IMG/VR virus record: IMGVR_UViG_3300027896_000010
Location: 129,438-193,437 of that record
Length of the DNA: 64,000 nt
Source: a virus
Reading direction: 5' to 3' (one strand)
Of the stretch, positions 41,224 to 57,822 are shown piece after piece (the stretch's first letter is position 1; the number at the start of each line of letters is the position of its first letter). The notes beneath the pieces are model-generated. The model did not search any database. It had not been told where the DNA came from and saw only the letters and a list, made by a program, of their open reading frames with translations. The position numbers and the translations under genes are program-made.

Positions 41224-42243
41224 CTAAAGCTTATGGATTCGCACGATACCTCGCGGGTTCACTATCAACATCCCTATAAGCTCGTCCAAAACCCAACCGA
41301 CCTCAAGATAATCAGGCCGGGGATACTCGACGGCTTCTAGCGAATAACGGACAGGCATGTAGCCCAAGTACTCCGGTGCTGGAGTAACAAAAGCCGTACC
41401 TCTGGTCACAACGATGGACTTCGTAATTTGAAGCTCACCGTACCTGACTATCGGTACACCATAGACCACATCGTCCTTCATTTTCCAGCCGCCAGAATCA
41501 ATCGCCCATGTGAACAAGTCGTAATATTCGGCATTGTTCATCACGATACGGTCAGCCTGTAGTTCGTGGCTGGCTACGATGCTCATAGCAGTTGCAAAAG
41601 CCGCAGCGCCCCATGCTCCAGTATTTGAGACCACATGATTAGGGGTCACGGTATGAAGAGGATGAGTGCTGTAATCAGTTAGAGCAACATTGAGCAAAGC
41701 GAACAGACGAATGTCCTCCTTTTTCCTGATGTCATCTTCGGTGAAATCCTTCGCGTACTTGACAATATCCGCACGAAGTGCATAGATATCATCCTTACCT
41801 ACGACCGGGAACGAAGCGACATGGAAAAGCTCCACGTGAACGCGCTTACCCTCGAACCTGCGTACCATAACCTGCCCTTCGGACTGGTTAAGAATGTACG
41901 CTAGCCCAAGCGTATCAAGCACATCGTACTCTGGAGCCTCGCCCTTTCCAAGCGGGGTCTCGACCACGATGTTACGCACGAGGCCTTCATACTTAAGCTT
42001 GACCATGATGGGAGCCACCATAGCTTGGCCTATTTTCTGAAGGCTTTCTCGCGAGTCACGGTATGCATGAAGAATCTTGCTCAGAGCTTCCTTAGAGGGA
42101 GTTTCGGGAGTCCCACCAGTCGTCTTCGCTATCTTCTGCATCCGCTTCACGTACTCCATAGAAGCATGTGCCTCACGCTGAGGTATTTCGGGGAGTGTAT
42201 CAACTCCCGCTGTCTTTCTTTCTCTCGCCATTTGTATTTCCAC
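41224..42243 (-). CDS. major capsid protein (HK97 fold, Bxz1-like)
   Basis: KIGQAMVAPI...YEGLVRN...YDVLDTLGLAYIL...FEGKRV...VASFP...EDIRLFALL...GWVLDELIGMLIVNPRG recalled as Bxz1-type capsid motifs; synteny. Confidence 0.9.
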   Translation of the reverse strand: MEIQMARERKTAGVDTLPEIPQREAHASMEYVKRMQKIAKTTGGTPETPSKEALSKILHAYRDSRESLQKIGQAMVAPIMVKLKYEGLVRNIVVETPLGKGEAPEYDVLDTLGLAYILNQSEGQVMVRRFEGKRVHVELFHVASFPVVGKDDIYALRADIVKYAKDFTEDDIRKKEDIRLFALLNVALTDYSTHPLHTVTPNHVVSNTGAWGAAAFATAMSIVASHELQADRIVMNNAEYYDLFTWAIDSGGWKMKDDVVYGVPIVRYGELQITKSIVVTRGTAFVTPAPEYLGYMPVRYSLEAVEYPRPDYLEVGWVLDELIGMLIVNPRGIVRIHKL

Positions 42244-47184: not shown

Positions 47185-48129
47185 CTATAGTCTTTTTGCT
47201 ATCGAATCTAGGAGTGATGCTACATGCTCCTGATTCACAACAGGTCGGTGAGCTTCCGCAAGCAATTCATATACAAGAGCTTTGTCGGCTCTGTCGTTAT
47301 CAAGCAACTCCTCACCAAGAACCTTCAGGGTCACTCCTAGAATCTCAAGATTACAGGCAGTACTCTGAAGCCCGCTGCTCAGTTCAAGCAGTGTTGCTGA
47401 AGTATCAGCAGGATTCTTGACGGCTGATATCTCAAAGAAACTAAGGTCTCGGTTATCTTCATAAACATAAATCTTAGGGGTGTTCCCAGCCTTCTGAATC
47501 CATTGCCCCTTCTGGTTCATCACATGGGAGCAATACTCGGCTGGCGTCTTCGCCAGATTGCCACATGCTGAACAATAACTTCTCTCGACATCGGTTCCCA
47601 TACTGAACGTGGAAATCTTATTCTCAAGCAATGCTGTGGCATACTTGGGATACGATTCGGCATCAACCTCTACCAGAAGCTCTACCCAATCGTCCCTGTT
47701 GAAGTTCACAGCTAATTTGTCGTCAATCAGGGCGTAATGCTCTATATGTTCTTCGGGAGTCCAGATGACAGGGTCATATTTGAATTTGCTATCAAACGAC
47801 TCTCGCTGGGATTTCAGCAAATCGGCAGAAGCTTCTTGCTTATGAAATGCCGCATCGACGACTACGCCACGAGCCTTGCGCCAGTTGCTATTGTCATGTT
47901 CTATGAAATGGGGGCATCCCCTGAAAGTTTCCCAGTGAGCCTCAAGCTCCATCGGTATGAAGCCATCATGGTTCTCATTGCATCGACTCGAAATAGCTCG
48001 GACAGTTATATAAAGATAGCCATCTCTAGCATCGAATTCAAAATCTGAATTATTTGCTAATTTACGAAATGACTTGGCACTATCAGCTACAGCAAGTATT
48101 GGAGAATTTGCATACTTGGTTATTGACAT
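47185..48129 (-). CDS. prohead (capsid maturation) protease
   Basis: VRAISSRCNENHDGF...HFIEH...SMGT...CSACGN...YCSH...FFEISAVKNPAD; start MSITKY at 48129. Confidence 0.8.
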   Translation of the reverse strand: MSITKYANSPILAVADSAKSFRKLANNSDFEFDARDGYLYITVRAISSRCNENHDGFIPMELEAHWETFRGCPHFIEHDNSNWRKARGVVVDAAFHKQEASADLLKSQRESFDSKFKYDPVIWTPEEHIEHYALIDDKLAVNFNRDDWVELLVEVDAESYPKYATALLENKISTFSMGTDVERSYCSACGNLAKTPAEYCSHVMNQKGQWIQKAGNTPKIYVYEDNRDLSFFEISAVKNPADTSATLLELSSGLQSTACNLEILGVTLKVLGEELLDNDRADKALVYELLAEAHRPVVNQEHVASLLDSIAKRL

Positions 48130-48782
48130 AAACCCCTCTCTATCATTTTCTGCCGATAGAAAATAATCCACTCATCACGCCGAACATTTGCCCTCAAATT
48201 ACAGGCGTTACAAACTGCCACCAAATTCTCTGGCAGACAATTCTTTTTGTCATAATCAATATGATGAACATCTAACTTGCGACCAGCCTCTCGCTGTGTT
48301 TTGCCACAATGTTGACAAGTCCACCCATCTCGCTCTCTTATAAAATCCTTAAGATTTCTATTAAATTCTGGGGAATAAGGCTCAAATGAAATCCCACCCT
48401 TCCATCGAGGGTGCTTTTCTCCCCTTTTTGCCTCACTCAACTTTCGCTTATGCTCTTCAGATAACACCTTGCCAGTATGAGCCTCACTCAATTTCTGTTT
48501 GGCTTCTTCGGTATGATGTCTCCCATTGGTTGGCCCCTTTTTGCCTAACCAATATCGAGCATTGTTTTCTTTGATTTTCTGCTTTGACTCTTCTGTATGC
48601 TTAAACCCCTCAAGACTTTTACTTATTTTGGGGCCAACAGTCTCACCCCTAGGGAATCCTTTACGGCATTCTCTGGAACAAAAATACCTCTGATAATCAT
48701 TCAGAGGTTCTCCACACTTTAGGCACCCATCTGGATAAGCCCCGTATTCACCTACCCCGTTCGGGTCTTTCTTCCTTGGCAT
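48120..48782 (-). CDS. HNH homing endonuclease with NUMOD3 repeats
   Basis: KHTEESKQKI / HHTEEAKQKLSEAH / LSEEHKRKLSEAK repeats; CQHCG...DVHHIDYDKKN...NLVAVCNACN. Confidence 0.92.
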   Translation of the reverse strand: MPRKKDPNGVGEYGAYPDGCLKCGEPLNDYQRYFCSRECRKGFPRGETVGPKISKSLEGFKHTEESKQKIKENNARYWLGKKGPTNGRHHTEEAKQKLSEAHTGKVLSEEHKRKLSEAKRGEKHPRWKGGISFEPYSPEFNRNLKDFIRERDGWTCQHCGKTQREAGRKLDVHHIDYDKKNCLPENLVAVCNACNLRANVRRDEWIIFYRQKMIERGLCQ

Positions 48783-48864: not shown

Positions 48865-49302
48865 CTATAACATCAAAAACTCTTGAAGCTCCTCAATACC
48901 ATCCCCATTAAACACAATAGTCAGCACTTGATTCTCTGATTTCGCATCTGATTTCAAAGCATCAAGGTTACGAGCCTCAAATTCCCCAGTAGCTTCTGAT
49001 ATAAGGTCATTAAGCTCGTCATCTGCAATATCACTGCCAGAAATGGCAACCATCATGTCTTCTGGAAGGTCGTAACTAACCCCAAACCCCTTCAGTCGAG
49101 TCTGGTTGCCAAGTGCTTCGTGCCTGTTTCTCCACTTCATACTCAGATTAGGAGATACGATAATCTGCTCATCGTCTTCCGAGCCTAGCACCTCACGAGC
49201 TACCTCTTCATTCCAGAGGGGCATCTCCTTCGTCGTCACTTTCGTTATCCTCGCCAGTTTCTCCATTCTTCTCTGCCTCCCTTTTCTTACGAGATTCCTC
49301 AA
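48865..49302 (-). CDS. hypothetical protein
   Basis: 145-aa ORF; true start probably near MEKLARI. Confidence 0.6.
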   Translation of the reverse strand: MRNLVRKGRQRRMEKLARITKVTTKEMPLWNEEVAREVLGSEDDEQIIVSPNLSMKWRNRHEALGNQTRLKGFGVSYDLPEDMMVAISGSDIADDELNDLISEATGEFEARNLDALKSDAKSENQVLTIVFNGDGIEELQEFLML

Positions 49303-51553
49303 GTTCGGCTAGCTTTTCTTTCACCAATTCCATATCCTCATCAGTTAACTGAGCCGATTTTGCTATCGTATTTATAACTGTGAGAGATTTGAGGTTATCA
49401 TCAGCCCTATCTGCCTTACGAGTCTCATCGAAAGTCTTACGGACTACCTCATTTCCCTCCTTGTCAACATAGATTGCGGCTCCAGCCACACCAGCGCCAC
49501 CTCCAGCAGGAGCGCCACCTCCACCGCCACCAGCAGGGGCGGGAGCGGCTCCAGCCCCACCCCCGGGAGCCGTCTCGGGAGCCTCAGGAGCGGCTATCTG
49601 CTCAGGTGTAGCCTTGTCTCTCATCTCGTCAGATATATCAGGTCGATTCTTAATCCTTGGTGCGCCACCCATCTCTTCATCATTCATCATGTCTGGTGGT
49701 GGGCCACCGCCGATATCGCCCTCTGGCTGTTCCATGTCTCCGAACATACTCTCAGGAACCTCACCACCAAACTTTGTGGCAACTACCTTGGCAATATATT
49801 CTTTATCAATCGGGATGCCGTGTTCCTTAAACGCCTTCTCCATCTCACGAATGGTTTCAGCCTTGGCGAGTTCACGCTCTATCAGTTCAGTCTTGATTTT
49901 GTCTGTTTCGTCATCTAGCGAGTAATCGATTCCAACCATCATCGCGCCATCAGAAATTGGGACGCCCATCTGCCGTAACTCTGTGAGGAACTGTCTCTGA
50001 GTAGCCTCATCTCTCAAGTTCATCGATGCGAGATGGACATCAGGGATAAGCAGTTTCGGAACCTCTCTGATTACAAGTTCGCCCTCTTCATCTAGCGTCT
50101 GGATACGCTCATAAATAATCTCCCTACGACCACCTTTCAAATTGTAGTCATAGAATTCATGCGCCCTAGCAACTGGCTCATATCGTTTCTTATATAGGAA
50201 CTGCTTCAGCATCTCTTGGTTATGAGCTAGGTTCTGTGACAGAATGTCTGCACTCAATGCCGTGCTTGCAAACGGTGCGCTTCCACCACCCTTAAGCAGG
50301 TCAAGAGGAATACCAAAAATCATGCACATCTTTTCTTCAATAGCGGCGAACTCTTCGCCCAGTTTCGGCATAACTTCAAAGCCTAGGACGGCTTCGATAT
50401 TAACTGCAAAGTGAGTCGAAAGAACTTTATAGTCGCTATCCATCGCCTCTTCTAATGTCCTCTGTAAGTGGTCAATATCTTCCTGCATAGGCATATAGGG
50501 GAATCCATCTGGCATAGTAATTGAAGCATCCCCCAGCTTAGCAAGAATCAACGGAGTTATCATACGCTCTGTGATAGCGTGGTAAGCCCTGAATAGTTTT
50601 TCTTCTATCATCATGTGTCGGAGAATCCTCATTAACAAAGGCTCACCACGAGGTGCCCACCTTGGGCCACGCTTCAACTGGGTGACTCTATCAGCACTTA
50701 ATTCGAATCCATGACCTGCCTGTATCGCCTTAAGAATGTCATCATTCAGGCTCTGAGTTAGCACCTGAAATTCAACGTATGGGCGACCTTTAGTGGCGAT
50801 TTCTTGTAGATATGATGGCGGCTCAAAAATGAATCTACGCTGTCCAAGAATCGGGTAAACTTCGACCCGAACATGAATCGGAGACATCAATTCATCAGCA
50901 ACCCAACAGCCTAAGTCATCCGACCAATCTGCCATGGGGAGAACCTCGCCAACCTTCCAAAATTCCGTATTCAAGTCGAGCAAAAACTGGAGGTAATCTA
51001 GCTCTTCCAAGAAGAGGTGGTCAAAGAACTTTTGGATGTATGGGTCTTTGCATTGATGCTCAAAACCGACGAGCGGAAACCGTGCATAAATGTCCACCAA
51101 AGTCGGAAAAAGATAGTGTGTTGCATAGAAGAATTGAGTCCATTGATAGAGCCGCTTGTATTGCTCCGGGTCTGTCTGAATGTTAAACGGAATCATCCAG
51201 AGCGTAGGACTTCGTGTCGGGTCCCAATACGCTTTTTCTCTCGCCCTTTGCGCTACAGGCCCAGTACCTGCTTCGCGTCTAAACCCTGACCTTACTGCAT
51301 TCTCAGAAGCCGCCATTGCACTGCTGGCGTTCTGTATAAATCGAGACGCAGATTGGCTATAGAATTCTTGTTGACCTATCGGTCTTGCAGGAAGCGTAAT
51401 GTTATGACCAGTGCCGACATCATAAGAGCCAGTCTTACCATGTTCACTAGCCATGCGATGTATCTTCATCGCTTCCTGTGTGGTAGCATTATCGGGAATG
51501 ATAATGCCATCTATGGGTGGCAAGTATCTACTCTCGCCCTGTTCCTCAGCCAA
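49208..51553 (-). CDS. portal protein with long low-complexity C-terminal extension
   Basis: FFYATHYLFPTLVDIYARFPL...EFWKVGE...RGEPLLMR...AKLGD recalled as Bxz1-type portal motifs; synteny. Confidence 0.85.
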   Translation of the reverse strand: MAEEQGESRYLPPIDGIIIPDNATTQEAMKIHRMASEHGKTGSYDVGTGHNITLPARPIGQQEFYSQSASRFIQNASSAMAASENAVRSGFRREAGTGPVAQRAREKAYWDPTRSPTLWMIPFNIQTDPEQYKRLYQWTQFFYATHYLFPTLVDIYARFPLVGFEHQCKDPYIQKFFDHLFLEELDYLQFLLDLNTEFWKVGEVLPMADWSDDLGCWVADELMSPIHVRVEVYPILGQRRFIFEPPSYLQEIATKGRPYVEFQVLTQSLNDDILKAIQAGHGFELSADRVTQLKRGPRWAPRGEPLLMRILRHMMIEEKLFRAYHAITERMITPLILAKLGDASITMPDGFPYMPMQEDIDHLQRTLEEAMDSDYKVLSTHFAVNIEAVLGFEVMPKLGEEFAAIEEKMCMIFGIPLDLLKGGGSAPFASTALSADILSQNLAHNQEMLKQFLYKKRYEPVARAHEFYDYNLKGGRREIIYERIQTLDEEGELVIREVPKLLIPDVHLASMNLRDEATQRQFLTELRQMGVPISDGAMMVGIDYSLDDETDKIKTELIERELAKAETIREMEKAFKEHGIPIDKEYIAKVVATKFGGEVPESMFGDMEQPEGDIGGGPPPDMMNDEEMGGAPRIKNRPDISDEMRDKATPEQIAAPEAPETAPGGGAGAAPAPAGGGGGGAPAGGGAGVAGAAIYVDKEGNEVVRKTFDETRKADRADDNLKSLTVINTIAKSAQLTDEDMELVKEKLAELEESRKKREAEKNGETGEDNESDDEGDAPLE

Positions 51554-51556
51554 AGC

Positions 51557-54151
51557 CTAACTCCTTTTTTGACGTTCTATATCAGTAACACCTAGCTTCC
51601 TACGATAGCGATTAGCCGCAGTCCAGAAGGGATGCGGTTCGGTAGAAGTTTTCTCCACATCCTTAAGACCTAGAAAGGAACCGCACTCTGGACACCGATG
51701 AGGTTGCTCTTCATCTTTCCAGTCATTAAAGTGCTTATCCACCGCTAAGTCTTTATTTTCCCCTGTCCAACCGCAATCAGTACAATGCACTTCGGGTTCT
51801 GCTTCGGCAGTCTTACGAGAAGCATATGCCTCAATAGAATTCATGCAATAATCCATCAATCGCTTTCTCAAATCAAGCGGTTCGTTCTCAAGCATAATTC
51901 TGAATTCTTCCTCGGCTTCTTCTATTGTTAGCTCATCTAACATAACAGAAGCCGCCACACCATCTATATAATCTCCGTATGATTCTAAAGCCTCTTCAAG
52001 TTCTTGGTCTTCAGCAGTCTTATGCCCTGCGTACCTATGCAGAAAAGGGTCTTCATCAGTAGTCGGGATGACTTCTCCAGTCGTATCCTTCCCCTTAAGA
52101 GATTGGTCTATCTGGCGCTTGCCCCTCGCATACGATTCCTCAAGCTGGTCAGCCACGCTAGACTCGGTGACCTCGCCCTTCTTGACAGCCGCTTTGATAG
52201 CATCATCAACGACATGGAAATCGTCTTCTGTCATATAATCCATCATCATCTTCTCGAAGAGCGGAGTAGAGCCTCGCCAGTCTTCCATATCTTCAGCACT
52301 GTACTTGGCTGTCCATGTGTACATATTGCCGTTGTACTGAACTGCTCCACGAGCCATGCTCAGTTTGGCATGAGGGTCAATCGGATTAGCAGGGACTATC
52401 TTCTCTACCATCACCCTAGGCTCGGAGACCGTGTTGCGGTCAGGCCAAGTACGAGCGGCAGCTTCCCTGCGAGAAGCAATAGTATCACCAGCCTGATATT
52501 CTCCATTCAATAGACTATCTTCGATTTGATATTGCTCTTCCAGACTAATAGCCCCCTCATCTGGATAAAGCATTCCTTCTACCATGTCCAAATCATTATC
52601 AAAAGCCATACCAACTTGTTCGGCATCAATAGCTGATAGACCATAATTCTCAGCCTCTGAAACCAAAGCTGTTCTTATGTTGGGTATGCTACGCAAATCA
52701 CCTTGCGTAGCCGCAATAATGGTCTCCCACCATTCCTTGCCTAATGACTGGATATACCCTTGGGCTGGATGTTGGGCAGTCTTGCGACCAAATGACTTCG
52801 GGACTTCTTCCAGAGACTTATCTTCTGGATTGAATTCATTGGAAACCATCTCGGTACGCTCATCAAAGAACCCTTCGTCCTTAAGGTCTTCAAGAACACT
52901 ATTAAGCGTATGATAGTTGTAGTCTTCCAGTATGTCATAATCCTCATCGGTAAACACATAATCAGGCATATCATCCGTTAGGAACTTAGATATTTCATCT
53001 CTAAAAAGTTCGTCGTCTACCATCCCACCATGTGTCCAGCCTTGTGACTCCCAAATATCATTATCTGCTTGCATCAGTTGCATGGCAGTAGAGCTTACAT
53101 CAGACATATCTTTTGTCCATGCAGTCTTGCGAGAAGCATAATTTGATTCCTGTGGGTTCTTTATTGTCCCTACCTCATCGGGTTCCATTTCTATAAGAAG
53201 CGTATCAGCAGAACCACATTCTGGGTTAGTACACTCTTCAACATTGCCCTCATGATGCTCACCTGTCATACCACAGCGTTGACACCACCATGCTTCAACA
53301 TAATCCTCCTCAGCAGTCTTGCGAGAAGCCCTCGTCAGTTTCATATCTTTCTCATAGCTCTTGACATCTTCATCACGAGCCTTGAGCTTGTCTACAAAAT
53401 CATTAGCGCCTTCCTTGGTGCGGAAATATTCCATCACAGGATTAGTCTGTACTGTTGTAGTCCACTCAACTACCCACAGACCATCCTTGGGAGACTGAGC
53501 TACCTTGGTCTTAAGCCCTTCATACTTAGCAATGCGCTGGCTAGCCACCATCGGCTCTCGTAGTTCTTCTTCCTCCTCTTCATCACGCTTACGCCTACGG
53601 AACCGCTCTGGAACAGGAGGAGCCATCTCTACCACGATTTCCTCTTCCTTAGGGCTAAGCTCTCTGGGACGCCCCTCGAACTGTCGCCATGGCTTCATAT
53701 CCCTAGCGGCTTCACGACTACTGGGCCGATTCTTGCCTTCTGGATTACACTCTGGACACGGCTCAAGCCCAAGACCTTGGCATCTGGAGCATTCCTTCGA
53801 TGGCGGGTTTACTCCGCGCTCCATACACTCACCACACGTTATCCAGCCGTCATCGCACTCTCCACAACTGCCAACAGAAGTTTCCGCTTCTACACTCGCC
53901 CTAGGAGCGATTTTATCCATACCCCTATCGCTGGCGGCTTCTGCCTTCAGAACCTCTTCGTAGACCTCTTCATACACAAGCTGAGCGTCCGAAGAAGCTA
54001 TCCTGTCCTCTTGGACAAAGTGGTTCACAGCAGAGCCTATAACCAATATAAGCTCATCCTCTTTGTCGCCAAGCATCTCGTCATCCTGCATGGCTTCTTT
54101 GACAAGCTCTACCAACTCAGTTATTGCCTTGCCAATCTTCCTTGAAAACAT
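51557..54151 (-). CDS. modular polyprotein-like head-associated protein (864 aa, five KTA sites)
   Basis: Short domains and Zn fingers separated by ASRKTA/GRKTA/GHKTA; directly upstream of portal. Confidence 0.75.
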   Translation of the reverse strand: MFSRKIGKAITELVELVKEAMQDDEMLGDKEDELILVIGSAVNHFVQEDRIASSDAQLVYEEVYEEVLKAEAASDRGMDKIAPRASVEAETSVGSCGECDDGWITCGECMERGVNPPSKECSRCQGLGLEPCPECNPEGKNRPSSREAARDMKPWRQFEGRPRELSPKEEEIVVEMAPPVPERFRRRKRDEEEEEELREPMVASQRIAKYEGLKTKVAQSPKDGLWVVEWTTTVQTNPVMEYFRTKEGANDFVDKLKARDEDVKSYEKDMKLTRASRKTAEEDYVEAWWCQRCGMTGEHHEGNVEECTNPECGSADTLLIEMEPDEVGTIKNPQESNYASRKTAWTKDMSDVSSTAMQLMQADNDIWESQGWTHGGMVDDELFRDEISKFLTDDMPDYVFTDEDYDILEDYNYHTLNSVLEDLKDEGFFDERTEMVSNEFNPEDKSLEEVPKSFGRKTAQHPAQGYIQSLGKEWWETIIAATQGDLRSIPNIRTALVSEAENYGLSAIDAEQVGMAFDNDLDMVEGMLYPDEGAISLEEQYQIEDSLLNGEYQAGDTIASRREAAARTWPDRNTVSEPRVMVEKIVPANPIDPHAKLSMARGAVQYNGNMYTWTAKYSAEDMEDWRGSTPLFEKMMMDYMTEDDFHVVDDAIKAAVKKGEVTESSVADQLEESYARGKRQIDQSLKGKDTTGEVIPTTDEDPFLHRYAGHKTAEDQELEEALESYGDYIDGVAASVMLDELTIEEAEEEFRIMLENEPLDLRKRLMDYCMNSIEAYASRKTAEAEPEVHCTDCGWTGENKDLAVDKHFNDWKDEEQPHRCPECGSFLGLKDVEKTSTEPHPFWTAANRYRRKLGVTDIERQKRS

Positions 54152-54162
54152 ATCGTCCTCCT

Positions 54163-57100
54163 CTACTCTCGCTCACGTAGATAAGCCGTGAAGTGGTCTC
54201 CACTCTCGCAAAGCCACGCTTCATACACTTCTAATCCGGGGTTTAAACTCTCAAGTGTCGTAGCCAGTGCCGTCCCTGCCGTAGCCGAAAACGGGTCGTG
54301 GTTCGGCACGTATTCCTCAAACGAACCAGTTAGCTCGAAAGTCTTACCTGTACTCGCACAGGCTCTGCACTTCGTATCCCAATCGTTATACTCAAAAGGC
54401 TCCGCTTTATACACGCTTCCACAACCATCGCACTTCTTTACTTCGTCAATCTTGTCCCATGGGGAAGGTCTCTGATAAACATCAGACATCCCTTTGCCCC
54501 CATCCATCATGCCGTCCTGCGAAGTGTACTGACCATCAGCAGTCTTGCGCGAAGCTATCTTCATGCGCTTCTTGATTTTGTCTCTGACTTTCCCAAGCTC
54601 AAAAGCCGTGCCTTCATCAAGTTCGCCATCTTCCTCATAGCCCTTAGCATAGACAATGGCTTCATCCAGCCCGTAGACTTTCATATCCCTGAAGAACTGC
54701 ATCATCAGCGGTACGTTATTACGAGCGCCAAGCTCCAGAGTCATCTCCAGTTCTCTTATATAAGAAGAGTTGTGCTTCATGTCCCAGTCCTGTATCTCTT
54801 GGAACATGAGACGCTTACCAGCGGCGGTCTTATGAGAAGCTTCCCTTCCCCCCATCTCTTTGGCCTGACAATCTGGACATAAGAATCTTTGATTCGGTGA
54901 CTCTTTTACAAGTTCACGCTGAGGTATTTCAAATAGTGTTCCACACTCATCACAAGTAGTCTGAGTGAACTCATCATCTCCCCACACTTGCTCTTGATGT
55001 TCTTGGTCTTTTATATCAACACCCAAATCACTCATCTCTTTGGCTTTAGCTTCAGATAATGGGCAGGGTTTCCAGTACTTATCGCGTTCGATAGTAATGC
55101 CCATTGGCCCCCTGACAGACTCAAGCTCGTCAAGCGAGAAATACCCAAGCTCAGGATAATCGCCTATAACGAACCCGAAGAACAGTCTCTGCTCAGGGTC
55201 ATACTCCGTAGCCAGCCATGTCCAGTTGCTCCATGGGGTAAAGAACTTCACCCATACCATTGGGTCTGGATTATCTTCCTGACTATAAAGCGGAGGAATT
55301 TTATTGAGGATGTCCTTGGTCATCAACATCATAGCAGTCTTACGGGAACCGAATATCTCCCGCTCGTACTCAGCCGACCTAGCCCAGTTATCTAGTTCCT
55401 CATCGCTCATGCTGGAAGGGATGACCCCATCCAGAGCAAGCTCGGCTAAAATAGCATTGGTGAGATGGTAATTATAGTCTTCAAGGATATCCATATCGCC
55501 CTCGTTGAGGACATAAGCCTCAGACATCGACATCAATTTGTCTTTGATATACTTTTTGGCTTCATCATAAGTTGGGCGATGCTCAGGAGTATGGATACCA
55601 TTGGTAAAATCCATCAGCATCTTGGCACCACGAGACACATCTGGCATATCCTCTGTCCATGCGGTCTTAGAAGCTTGCGTTGGTTGCACAGGAGTTCTTT
55701 GCCTGCCGTGACCGTATTCTACTTTGGCAAGATAGAATCTGCCCTCAGACCTTATGAGAGCATCATAGGGCCAATACGCCTCGGCATCCAAAGTCTGAAC
55801 TAAATCCCACCCGACTTCAAAGTTCATCCAGTCTAGGTCTTCTTGGTCAAGGACATAAGCACCATCCTCATCAAGACCATCCATTGGCTTAGAAGCATCG
55901 GCGCTCTGGGCTTTCTCTACCCACAACTCAGATACATTGAAATCTTCCCAATTGGCGGTCTTGCTCCCACCCCTAGTGACCCTCTCATGCTTCTTCCTGA
56001 TACAATCCCCACAGACGTTCCACTTGCTCAGGAACTGCTCTGGGCCTAGCTCCTTGCCACACTCTTCGCATTTAACAGACGGGAGATTATCAAAAGCTTC
56101 CTGCACATCTTCGGGTCTCGCCGTGTAGCTCCTATCCTCTCGACCAGCCGCCTTGTCCTTATCCTTTATCCTCATCTCAAGAAGCTCACCCATTATCTGG
56201 GTCGTTACAACTTTCTCCGCAAGGGTAGAAGTACTCCAATGATTTAGTATGTTATAGAGCCTCACACCTTCTTCTAGAGTTATCTTTTCTTCCATGACGG
56301 CAAGGCTCTTCTCATTTTGATATGCGGATAATTCTTGAAGGGGCAAATCTTCGAGGGACTCTTCCAGATGCTTGACCTTATCGGGGTCAGCCTCTGCTAT
56401 CTTTTTCCCCATGCCGATGATTGCGGAATCAATACGATTAGCAGTTTTACGAGAAGCCAAAACTTGCCCATGCTCTTTCGCGTACTCCACAATATCATGA
56501 ACATTCGGAGAAGGATAATCAGATGAATCAGGATTGTTCATTCTGCGTATCATGTCTGCAACCTCACCAGCCGCATCTGGCGAGAGGTTGATTTGATGAT
56601 TTTGGTTACCATCTTCATCTGCCTCAATTGACCAATAGGCCAATGTCCCACTCGCCGGGTATTCTTCTGGGCCAGCCACCAATGTGCCACTAGAGTGTTC
56701 CCCTTCCCAACTCAATTCCATCTCCACGCCCGTCTGAGAAGAATCCTGAGGCAGAAGCTCTTGGAAGTCCACCGCAGTTTTACAAGAACCCTCTTTCAGA
56801 TAAGCCTTGATACGGCTCTTGATTTCATAAGCTTGGTCTTTGGTAAGTTTGATATCATTTGCAACCATCTCATATGGGCGGTATCCTGTGTCGAAACGAG
56901 ACTTCTTTAGCTTCGGAGCTTTCTTTTCTTCGCTCTCTGGACTGGGAAGCTCTTCGTCCCAACGACCCGGGAGCAGTTCACCTTTTTTTAGCTCACCACG
57001 CTTGTGTTTCTTCTTGGAATTCTCTTCTATGATATTAAAGACTCCATGAGCATATTCATAATCTCTCGGCGTCTCAAGTTTACCAAGCTCTTCTTCGGCG

Positions 57101-57822
57101 GCCCCTTCTCCTTGATGCCAATGCTTGCGTTGCTTTTTGGTCTTCACGAAGCCCGGGTGCTTGGCTTCTACGTCTCGTGCCACCCTTTGTGTGAATCCGC
57201 AGCTATCACAGACACGACGATAAGAACCGTACCGTTTCAGACTGCCATGACAAACTGGGCAATCTGTCTTTGCCACAAATGTCTGGAATGTCTGCGGTCT
57301 GCCACGCTCATTTTGCATTCTAAAATCATTTATGAAGTTAGAAACCTCTTCTTCGCGTTCCTCATCGGACTGGAATGTTTCAGGGGGGTAGGCTGGTTGG
57401 AAGTTGGGGGCTGGCTGATGTTTACGAGGCTTCTTGGGGATAGCTTGCTTCTCAGCCTCTATTTTAGAAGCCTCAGAGGGACGAGAGGCGAATGGCTTAC
57501 CCTCTACGTCATAGCCATAAGACTCCTGCTCGACCATGCCTGTACCCTCACAATCAGGACATTCTTCAACCTCTCCCGTCTCTACATCATTCTCAATGAC
57601 AGGAGCCATGCCGGTTCCATCACAAATGGGACATTTTACTTTCCCAGCAGTTCTACGGGCCTCTACCTCGTCAAGATACTCATCAACTAGAGATGCGTAT
57701 TTGGGGTCGAACACAGTATTGCACCCACTCTCTTGATATAGGCAATCACATATCTCGACAGCCTCTTCTCTAGATAGCTTTTTTGAGAAATGTCGCCTAC
57801 AAGCTCTCTCATTTGGATTCAT
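54163..57822 (-). CDS. modular polyprotein-like head-associated protein (1219 aa, eight K/R-T-A sites) including a DUF2958-like domain
   Basis: MMLMTKDILNKIPPLYSQE...VKFFTPWSNWTWLATEYD...ELGYFSLDELE...IERD is the DUF2958 pattern; several CxxC fingers. Confidence 0.8.
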   Translation of the reverse strand: MNPNERACRRHFSKKLSREEAVEICDCLYQESGCNTVFDPKYASLVDEYLDEVEARRTAGKVKCPICDGTGMAPVIENDVETGEVEECPDCEGTGMVEQESYGYDVEGKPFASRPSEASKIEAEKQAIPKKPRKHQPAPNFQPAYPPETFQSDEEREEEVSNFINDFRMQNERGRPQTFQTFVAKTDCPVCHGSLKRYGSYRRVCDSCGFTQRVARDVEAKHPGFVKTKKQRKHWHQGEGAAEEELGKLETPRDYEYAHGVFNIIEENSKKKHKRGELKKGELLPGRWDEELPSPESEEKKAPKLKKSRFDTGYRPYEMVANDIKLTKDQAYEIKSRIKAYLKEGSCKTAVDFQELLPQDSSQTGVEMELSWEGEHSSGTLVAGPEEYPASGTLAYWSIEADEDGNQNHQINLSPDAAGEVADMIRRMNNPDSSDYPSPNVHDIVEYAKEHGQVLASRKTANRIDSAIIGMGKKIAEADPDKVKHLEESLEDLPLQELSAYQNEKSLAVMEEKITLEEGVRLYNILNHWSTSTLAEKVVTTQIMGELLEMRIKDKDKAAGREDRSYTARPEDVQEAFDNLPSVKCEECGKELGPEQFLSKWNVCGDCIRKKHERVTRGGSKTANWEDFNVSELWVEKAQSADASKPMDGLDEDGAYVLDQEDLDWMNFEVGWDLVQTLDAEAYWPYDALIRSEGRFYLAKVEYGHGRQRTPVQPTQASKTAWTEDMPDVSRGAKMLMDFTNGIHTPEHRPTYDEAKKYIKDKLMSMSEAYVLNEGDMDILEDYNYHLTNAILAELALDGVIPSSMSDEELDNWARSAEYEREIFGSRKTAMMLMTKDILNKIPPLYSQEDNPDPMVWVKFFTPWSNWTWLATEYDPEQRLFFGFVIGDYPELGYFSLDELESVRGPMGITIERDKYWKPCPLSEAKAKEMSDLGVDIKDQEHQEQVWGDDEFTQTTCDECGTLFEIPQRELVKESPNQRFLCPDCQAKEMGGREASHKTAAGKRLMFQEIQDWDMKHNSSYIRELEMTLELGARNNVPLMMQFFRDMKVYGLDEAIVYAKGYEEDGELDEGTAFELGKVRDKIKKRMKIASRKTADGQYTSQDGMMDGGKGMSDVYQRPSPWDKIDEVKKCDGCGSVYKAEPFEYNDWDTKCRACASTGKTFELTGSFEEYVPNHDPFSATAGTALATTLESLNPGLEVYEAWLCESGDHFTAYLRERE

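Follow-up and report, generated by a model that had tools for sequence, protein, structure and literature searches.

A complete DUF2958 domain at a junction word of a putative head-cargo polyprotein in a Bxz1/Myrna-type phage

The window analyzed here is a stretch of 64,000 nucleotides (nt; positions 129,438 to 193,437 of the IMG/VR virus record IMGVR_UViG_3300027896_000010), the last 64 kb of a 193-kb record, ~95% complete, of an uncultured phage. It encodes a protein of 1219 amino acids (aa), P0001, in which a complete DUF2958 domain begins with its own methionine, Met831, directly behind a short word that recurs along the protein. We consider it rather likely that P0001 serves a Bxz1/Myrna-type myovirus as a head-cargo polyprotein, and that its DUF2958 cassette is a formerly free gene whose product is now cut out by a protease. 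What is specific to this case is that one cassette is demonstrably, as judged from its homologues, a whole and formerly free gene with its Met abutting the junction word. It would thus be a natural example of how a cargo polyprotein grows, i.e., by in-frame fusion of a free gene. Because the Met of the free gene stands exactly at the word, it supports the word as a true module border, which helps in reading such polyproteins in other phages.

Specifically, we propose that P0001 consists of small, independent cassettes linked to one another through the word [AG][SG][RH]KTA, and that the cassette from M831 to A1000 (170 aa) would represent a whole DUF2958 gene that once stood free, complete with its start Met, together with a zinc (Zn)-ribbon tail. 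The polyprotein would be built into the prohead beside the portal, where the phage's assemblin/gp21-fold protease would cut at the junction words, the same word also ending the 8-residue leader of the capsid protein, and the freed pieces would remain in the capsid and pass into the host along with the DNA. DUF2958, an early gene in plasmids and other phages, would then already be there when infection begins, and could serve as a non-enzymatic binding module that aids DNA establishment or blocks nuclease-type host defence, beside functions of the ParB, ArdC and SNF2 types. Cleavage at the word by the head protease appears probable to us, and on delivery of the cassette into the host we are evenly divided.

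The DUF2958 cassette and its boundaries

Residues 824-830 of P0001 read F-G-S-R-K-T-A, and from residue 831 the protein continues with M-M-L-M-T-K-D-I-L-N-K-I-P-P; R827-K828-T829-A830 correspond to nt 55344-55333 of the window and M831 to nt 55332-55330. A preliminary description made from the DNA letters had picked out FGSRKTA followed by a DUF2958-like domain with its own Met, and this arrangement is real, on the minus strand within the P0001 reading frame (Table 1). The domain is also what it was taken for: its Pfam match to DUF2958 (PF11171) reaches 63 bits (E 4e-17), with the cut-off at 21, and a six-frame search of the genome gives 67.6 bits.

The Pfam match covers residues 848-919 of P0001 and profile positions 19-93 of 111. 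This local alignment starts 17 residues past Met831, so that the expectation of a profile match beginning at the Met itself was not borne out, but direct comparison with homologues does reach the Met. Moorella phage MTATph1 has a free-standing 106-aa gene whose product is 58% identical to the cassette over 98 residues by tblastn, with its start codon aligned to cassette residue 1. The family is a large one: searched exhaustively with phmmer, 1.84 billion protein representatives yielded 4003 at E ≤ 0.001, and many of the best matches are proteins of ~100 aa that align one-to-one from their first residue. The 150 best representatives comprise 56 stand-alone proteins starting at the domain, 54 with N-terminal and 11 with C-terminal extensions, and 29 in which the domain is internal. 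The stand-alone proteins typically start MKLLTKEI..LPP, in line with the M.L.T start given in the preliminary description, and the window cassette starts MMLMTKDILNKIPP. In a 56-sequence alignment (A1), M1, L3 and P13 of the cassette are conserved in at least 90% of sequences, and every near-invariant residue of the core is present (K29, F31, P33, W39, E43, F52, G53, E61, G63, E69, G78 and E82-R83-D84). The phmmer and BLAST alignments with free members span cassette residues 1-100, with Met1 equivalent to Met831. On these comparisons the identity of the domain and its boundary at Met831 are practically certain.

An AlphaFold model of the cassette has a predicted local distance difference test score (pLDDT) of 93-98 over residues 1-100; in it a helix at the N-terminus is followed by a small barrel of four strands and by two more helices. 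Against BFVD the model retrieves DUF2958 homologues only, and in a protein atlas it retrieves DUF2958 clusters only, most of them viral; a sequence search of solved structures with the cassette gave nothing relevant. A low-confidence linker connects DUF2958 to the Zn-ribbon-like tail, and the low model confidence at the C-terminal junction of the cassette indicates that this is probably a flexible stretch. The released product predicted from the positions of the words would be 170 aa, DUF2958 plus Zn-ribbon tail, rather than the bare domain.

The GC content of the cassette is 0.473, compared with 0.477 for the whole gene, and neither GC nor third-position GC (GC3) is anomalous. We therefore reject a recent horizontal capture of the cassette, since its GC content is like that of the rest of the gene and its closest homologues are only ~60% identical. 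The earlier idea that a whole free-standing gene had been captured in frame stands as far as the complete domain, its N-terminus at Met831 and its place in a variable middle region (see below) are concerned, but the capture is not recent and the product would be 170 aa.

The rest of P0001 is less readable. Other Pfam matches are weak and of Zn-ribbon type only, so that DUF2958 and Zn-ribbon-like motifs are all that can be recognized and the remaining seven or eight cassettes belong to no recognized family. Zn-ribbon-like CxxC...CxxC units occur in 5 of the 9 P0001 segments, several times in the neighbouring 864-aa protein, and in the polyproteins of relatives and Mycobacterium phage Myrna gp87 (L013, L007 and L006), which suggests a common role for small Zn-stabilized units in this class of cargo.

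A separate pattern is seen in DUF2958 proteins that carry N-terminal extensions. In 68 of these (from P0005-P0154), Arg is found at position -2 in 30 (background 7%) and Gly at -4 in 19, and in 20 of them His replaces Met1, giving G-x-R-[KR]-H-K-L-L-T. The residues preceding the domain could here extend the fold in one subfamily or mark a further processing site.

Junction word, head protease and gene order

KTA occurs 7 times in P0001 compared with 0.31 expected, a count that 0 of 20000 shuffles reached, and 5 times in the 864-aa neighbour compared with 0.22 expected. At the cassette borders of both proteins the word usually has the form [AG][SG][RH]KTA. The strict word [AGS][SG][RH]K[TISE][AS] has 8 matches in the two polyproteins and one other, in a doubtful open reading frame (ORF), among the 718 ORFs of the genome. 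Of the 8 copies of RKTA in the 61,276 aa that the phage encodes, the two polyproteins account for 7, and the eighth lies at residues 5-8 of the capsid protein. Conservation is confined to the N-terminal side of each border, while the residue that follows (P1') is free and can be V, N, W, M, A, D, E, Q, G or K; such one-sided conservation is typical of a protease site. Two paralogous cassettes, residues 722-830 of P0001 and 345-459 of the 864-aa protein, are 36% identical and have the word at both ends but different neighbours. At the DNA level, the words at 53120-53137, 53312-53329, 51806-51823 and 54538-54555 often use the same codons (GCT TCT CGY AAG ACT GCH), and these 15-18 nt of near-identical junction DNA could act as microhomology for the exchange of cassettes.

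The head module also encodes a candidate for the cutting enzyme. A structural model of the head maturation protease P0156, built on 15 homologues (mean pLDDT 69), aligns with T4 gp21 (5jbl_A) at Z 9.8 over 143 residues, with a root-mean-square deviation of 3.2 Å; the next match has Z 5.8, and a herpesvirus protease is among the matches at Z 5.4. The T4 gp21 match was found by VIA-align alone, and Foldseek on the same model found nothing. H78, H96, S176 and H202 are invariant among the homologues, and two His and one Ser in such invariant columns may be catalytic. The usual determinants for this protease fold are P3 and P1, as in the sites L/I-x-E of T4, S/A/G-x-E of phiKZ-like phages and V/L-x-A of herpesviruses. 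K-T-A would fit this rule: Ala would occupy P1, and the product of the cut would begin at Met831.

The word is also shared with proteins that such an enzyme normally cuts. The capsid protein, which is 41% identical to those of Mycobacterium and Gordonia cluster-C-type myoviruses such as Myrna (Myrna/Bxz1-type), has the 8-residue leader MARERKTA (nt 42208-42231), the sole RKTA beyond the two polyproteins, and the scaffold-like protein has QSKTA, so that cargo and capsid or scaffold have a short site in common. Pfam and PHROGs found no peptidase domain in P0001 or in its 864-aa neighbour. A word common to the polyproteins and the capsid leader, with no embedded peptidase, suggests that the head protease does the processing, in trans.

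Nearly all genes of the window are on the minus strand. In that direction the order is a 1713-aa repeat protein, a 185-aa protein, P0001, the 864-aa polyprotein, the portal, an HNH endonuclease, the head maturation protease, a 243-aa protein, a 1194-aa protein, a 171-aa protein and the capsid protein. The P0001 gene is thus two genes upstream of the portal, inside the head module, a location among late, packaging and portal genes that is characteristic of polyvalent proteins.

Table 1. Features of the head module and of P0001 (window coordinates).
Feature	Position	Strand	Remarks
Major capsid protein	41224..42231	minus	phrog_2522, E 6.5e-75; true ATG at 42231, strong Shine-Dalgarno (SD)
Scaffold-like protein, 1194 aa	42851..46435	minus	between protease and capsid genes; QSKTA and GRKSA
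Head maturation protease P0156, 314 aa, assemblin/T4 gp21-type fold	47185..48129	minus	phrog_18299, E 3.8e-20
Portal protein	49208..51553	minus	immediately downstream of both polyproteins; phrog_2833, E 1.8e-110
Second cassette polyprotein, 864 aa	51557..54151	minus	5 KTA junctions; cassette 345-459 is a paralogue of P0001 722-830
P0001, 1219-aa cassette polyprotein	54163..57822	minus	SD AAGGGG before ATG
Junction word A995-S-H-K-T-A1000, end of 170-aa cassette	54823..54840	minus	pLDDT ~57
Zn-ribbon-like cassette tail, CxxC at 957 and 982	54859..54963	minus	weak treble-clef matches; pLDDT 81-90
Complete DUF2958 domain, M831 to ~residue 930	55033..55332	minus	Pfam; homologue alignments; pLDDT
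Junction word G825-S-R-K-T-A830, directly before DUF2958	55333..55350	minus	one of 7 KTA sites in P0001

In the window, an HNH/NUMOD3 endonuclease gene (48120-48782) separates the portal gene from the protease gene. In the closest relative the portal gene (L013:6001-9573) encodes 1190 aa, compared with 781 aa in the window phage, and precomputed Pfam marks place in it an intein that carries a LAGLIDADG homing endonuclease.

Outside the window (G000:C1:5676-12079), a 1761-aa protein contains two copies of a related word, Q-R-[KRQ]-I-A, which is also found at the N-termini of the products of two small genes nearby (MNQRKIA and MNQRRIA). These proteins may be further substrates of the same protease.

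Relatives, known systems and alternative explanations

The sole homologue of P0001 detected in a collection of 5.8 billion proteins is P0004 (867 aa), encoded on a 32-kb contig whose genes follow the same order. Modules 1-343 and 1087-1218 of P0001 are kept in this relative (44-63% identity in the N-terminal module and 64% in the C-terminal module) and the middle is variable: that of P0004 is unrelated to that of P0001 and contains no DUF2958. The position of DUF2958 in this variable middle fits the acquisition of a free gene as a cassette. The words themselves recur in this relative, with SRKTA, SRRTA, SRKIA and SRKSV in its polyproteins and ASRRTA and ASRKTA in its orthologue of the scaffold-like protein. 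A nucleotide search of 50,697 phage records with the P0001 gene gave no match.

A more distant contig, L007, has a portal 33% identical to that of the window. Its row of genes begins with the 255-aa P0088, followed by proteins of 784 and 860 aa with 11 ASR[KR] words, three small genes and the portal. P0088 consists of an N-terminal domain of no known family, A-S-R-K-T-S, a 7-residue spacer and a DUF2958 domain, which is not the closest relative of the window copy. In a quick maximum-likelihood tree of 148 DUF2958 domain sequences, whose resolution is weak on a domain of 100 residues, the window domain pairs with a free 108-aa protein (support 0.72) and the P0088 copy is far away, at rank 117 of 147, which hints that the two were captured independently. 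Single-protein scans of IMG/VR with the portal and with DUF2958 found no related polyprotein, and one stand-alone DUF2958 locus (L016). The contexts of P0075, P0027, P0011 and P0009 were not used because the contigs are too short or too uninformative, and a single ASRKTA in P0031 and an ASKTA in P0009 were not counted as evidence since they could be due to chance.

P0001 resembles the polyvalent proteins, for which release of domains by embedded peptidases has been proposed (Iyer, Burroughs, Anand, de Souza and Aravind, 2017; PMC5512222): it is large, encoded late beside packaging and portal genes, strings together unrelated modules that are also known on their own, and belongs to a type thought to enter with the DNA. 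The main text of that paper makes no mention of DUF2958, which is elsewhere fused to the signature polyvalent domains ddrB-ParB, SNF2 and RadC. Many polyvalent proteins contain a zincin-like or other peptidase for self-processing, whereas in P0001 neither an embedded peptidase nor a recognized enzymatic effector domain was found, and its modules are separated by a fixed short word. The likeness to T4 IPI-III and Alt and to the ejection proteins of SPN3US and phiKZ (PMC9026906, PMC10052503, PMC5694885) lies in the gp21-fold protease, the short site common to capsid, scaffold and internal proteins, and the ejection-bound cargo. Processing of internal or ejection proteins by the prohead protease is established for T4 and SPN3US; for the window phage such processing is predicted, along with packaging and ejection. 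In SPN3US, self-cleavage of the protease aside, all identified cleavages give N-terminal propeptides (PMC10052503), whereas each polyprotein of the window would release up to 8-9 cassettes of similar size, like beads on a string. The site also differs, being basic (S-R-K-T-A) here and x-x-Glu in T4-, SPN3US- and phiKZ-type systems.

Compared with the free DUF2958 genes of plasmids, ICEs (integrative and conjugative elements) and phages, the window copy has the full length and the N-terminal M-x-L-[LM]-T-K, but it stands at residue 831 of a head protein, has no ribosome-binding site of its own and carries a Zn-ribbon tail. It would arrive in the host as protein, whereas free DUF2958 genes are expressed after entry. 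Another similar protein is Myrna gp87 (1296 aa), from the same head-module lineage, encoded before the portal and with recurring [AGS]SRR words and CxxC pairs; it differs by having no DUF2958, long acidic Pro-rich low-complexity linkers and no detectable sequence similarity to P0001.

ALTERNATIVES considered were internal initiation at Met831, recent transfer (rejected above), an uncut structural protein and a different cutting enzyme. It is very improbable that Met831 is a working internal start, with DUF2958 also made as a nested gene product and the position of RKTA a coincidence. The ATG is retained, and 20 of the 68 N-extended homologues keep a Met at the same position. However, there is no SD within 20 nt upstream of Met831, compared with AAGGGG, GAGGAGG, AAAGGAG and GGGAGG before neighbouring real starts, among them the strong SDs of the polyprotein, portal and capsid genes, and Met831 therefore resembles a relic more than a functioning start. 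Moreover, many fused homologues have His or Gln instead of Met, and the Met here is placed directly behind a word that recurs 12 times. That P0001 stays uncut, as a multidomain virion or assembly protein in which the repeated ASRKTA serves structure or binding (contacts with portal, scaffold or DNA) and DUF2958 is one domain of a large polyvalent protein, seems unlikely: the cassette border is exactly where conservation ends, cassettes are exchanged at the word, which is also present in the 8-residue capsid leader and in the scaffold-like protein, and the same module encodes an assemblin-fold protease. Such a protein would agree with the many DUF2958 proteins that are stable fusions with SNF2, ddrB-ParB, ChaB or RadC, with the frequent delivery of published polyvalent proteins as whole molecules, e.g., N4 vRNAP and ArdC (PMC5512222), and with the capsid leader of a relative in which the word is missing.

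Cutting by some other enzyme or at another time, e.g., by a host protease or, after injection, by a putative zincin peptidase of the 1761-aa phage protein, is an idea we regard as quite improbable. Processing after injection by embedded peptidases was proposed by Iyer et al. (PMC5512222) and the 1761-aa protein of the same genome carries the related QR[KRQ]IA words, but the polyproteins have no detectable peptidase domain of their own, and the word is confined to head-module proteins that include the capsid and scaffold-like proteins, the normal substrates of a prohead protease.

Several observations weigh against the cargo-polyprotein reading itself, or against parts of it. The capsid leader of the closest relative, MAKELTNA..., does not contain RKTA, which means that processing of the capsid leader is not conserved and that the capsid RKTA is possibly incidental. 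Across lineages the invariant core of the word is A-S-R-[KR] and the following two positions vary, so that a cut after Lys/Arg instead of Ala is possible; the new N-terminus would then be either Met831 (cut after Ala830) or Thr-Ala-Met (cut after Lys828). No short homologues were found for the P0001 cassettes at residues 351-830, and capture of a free gene is therefore demonstrated for the DUF2958 cassette only. Searches aimed at function give little: PHROGs added nothing on P0001 and PADLOC had no match, Foldseek found no PDB structure matching the DUF2958 model at E ≤ 0.001, and a wide VIA search retrieved only generic SH3/KOW/Sm-like small barrels (best Z 4.9). A role of DUF2958 as a DNA mimic was not adopted, as the family is just mildly acidic (median net charge -5).

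Gene context and possible role of DUF2958

No functional study of DUF2958 was found in the literature searched, and we therefore turn to the genes with which it is associated. On two conjugative plasmids a DUF2958 gene lies between a gene for an ArdC-like zincin and a large ParB gene, and in Moorella phage MTATph1 it is near helicase, ParB-like, HicB and integrase genes. DUF2958 also directly adjoins genes for giant SNF2 helicases, and is fused with ddrB-ParB plus SNF2, with RadC, or into ChaB-headed modular proteins. From this context, a role in establishing incoming DNA or in countering defence is conceivable but doubtful. The preliminary description had proposed action early in infection, possibly against host defence; the ArdC-DUF2958-ParB, SNF2, ddrB-ParB and RadC contexts fit that proposal and are also its only basis.

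The location of DUF2958 in a probable injected-cargo polyprotein turns this into the testable idea that it acts at DNA entry, with which the company of ArdC, ParB and SNF2 agrees. T4 IPI is an injected anti-restriction protein. We put forward tentatively the broader suggestion that DUF2958 is an injected factor that acts at 'time zero' in establishment or against defence, and that phages of the Bxz1-type head lineage have repeatedly and independently moved it into cargo polyproteins punctuated by ASR[KR], once in the window phage and once in the L007 lineage. If true, the junction word would be a readable code for predicting small phage proteins that are delivered as protein, and the delivery would parallel the placement of DUF2958 beside ArdC and ParB on conjugative plasmids.

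The window phage itself encodes an SNF2-family helicase outside the window (G000:C1:119994-120812; 552-aa frame, PF00176, E 8.8e-51), ~64 kb from the DUF2958 gene; SNF2 is the commonest recognizable partner of DUF2958 elsewhere. WhiB and ddrB-ParB were not found in this phage genome.

In another phage lineage, DUF2958 is one module of the ChaB-headed modular proteins P0043 (L009:7376-10483) and P0044, of 832-1035 aa. Their modules are separated by a different linker code, three copies of the Gly/His-rich R-G-G-P-G-S-G-H-x-G-H-x-G-R-P-G-x-x-G-G-S, and a neighbouring 1034-aa protein has a ParB-like N-terminus.

Finally, Microcystis phage Mwe-JY31 (PP438423.1) contains an unannotated DUF2958 homologue at L002:623-919 that is 45% identical. 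It has three in-frame TGA codons, two of them on Gly columns conserved in the family, and ends at TAG; it looks like either a gene in which UGA is read as Gly or a pseudogene.

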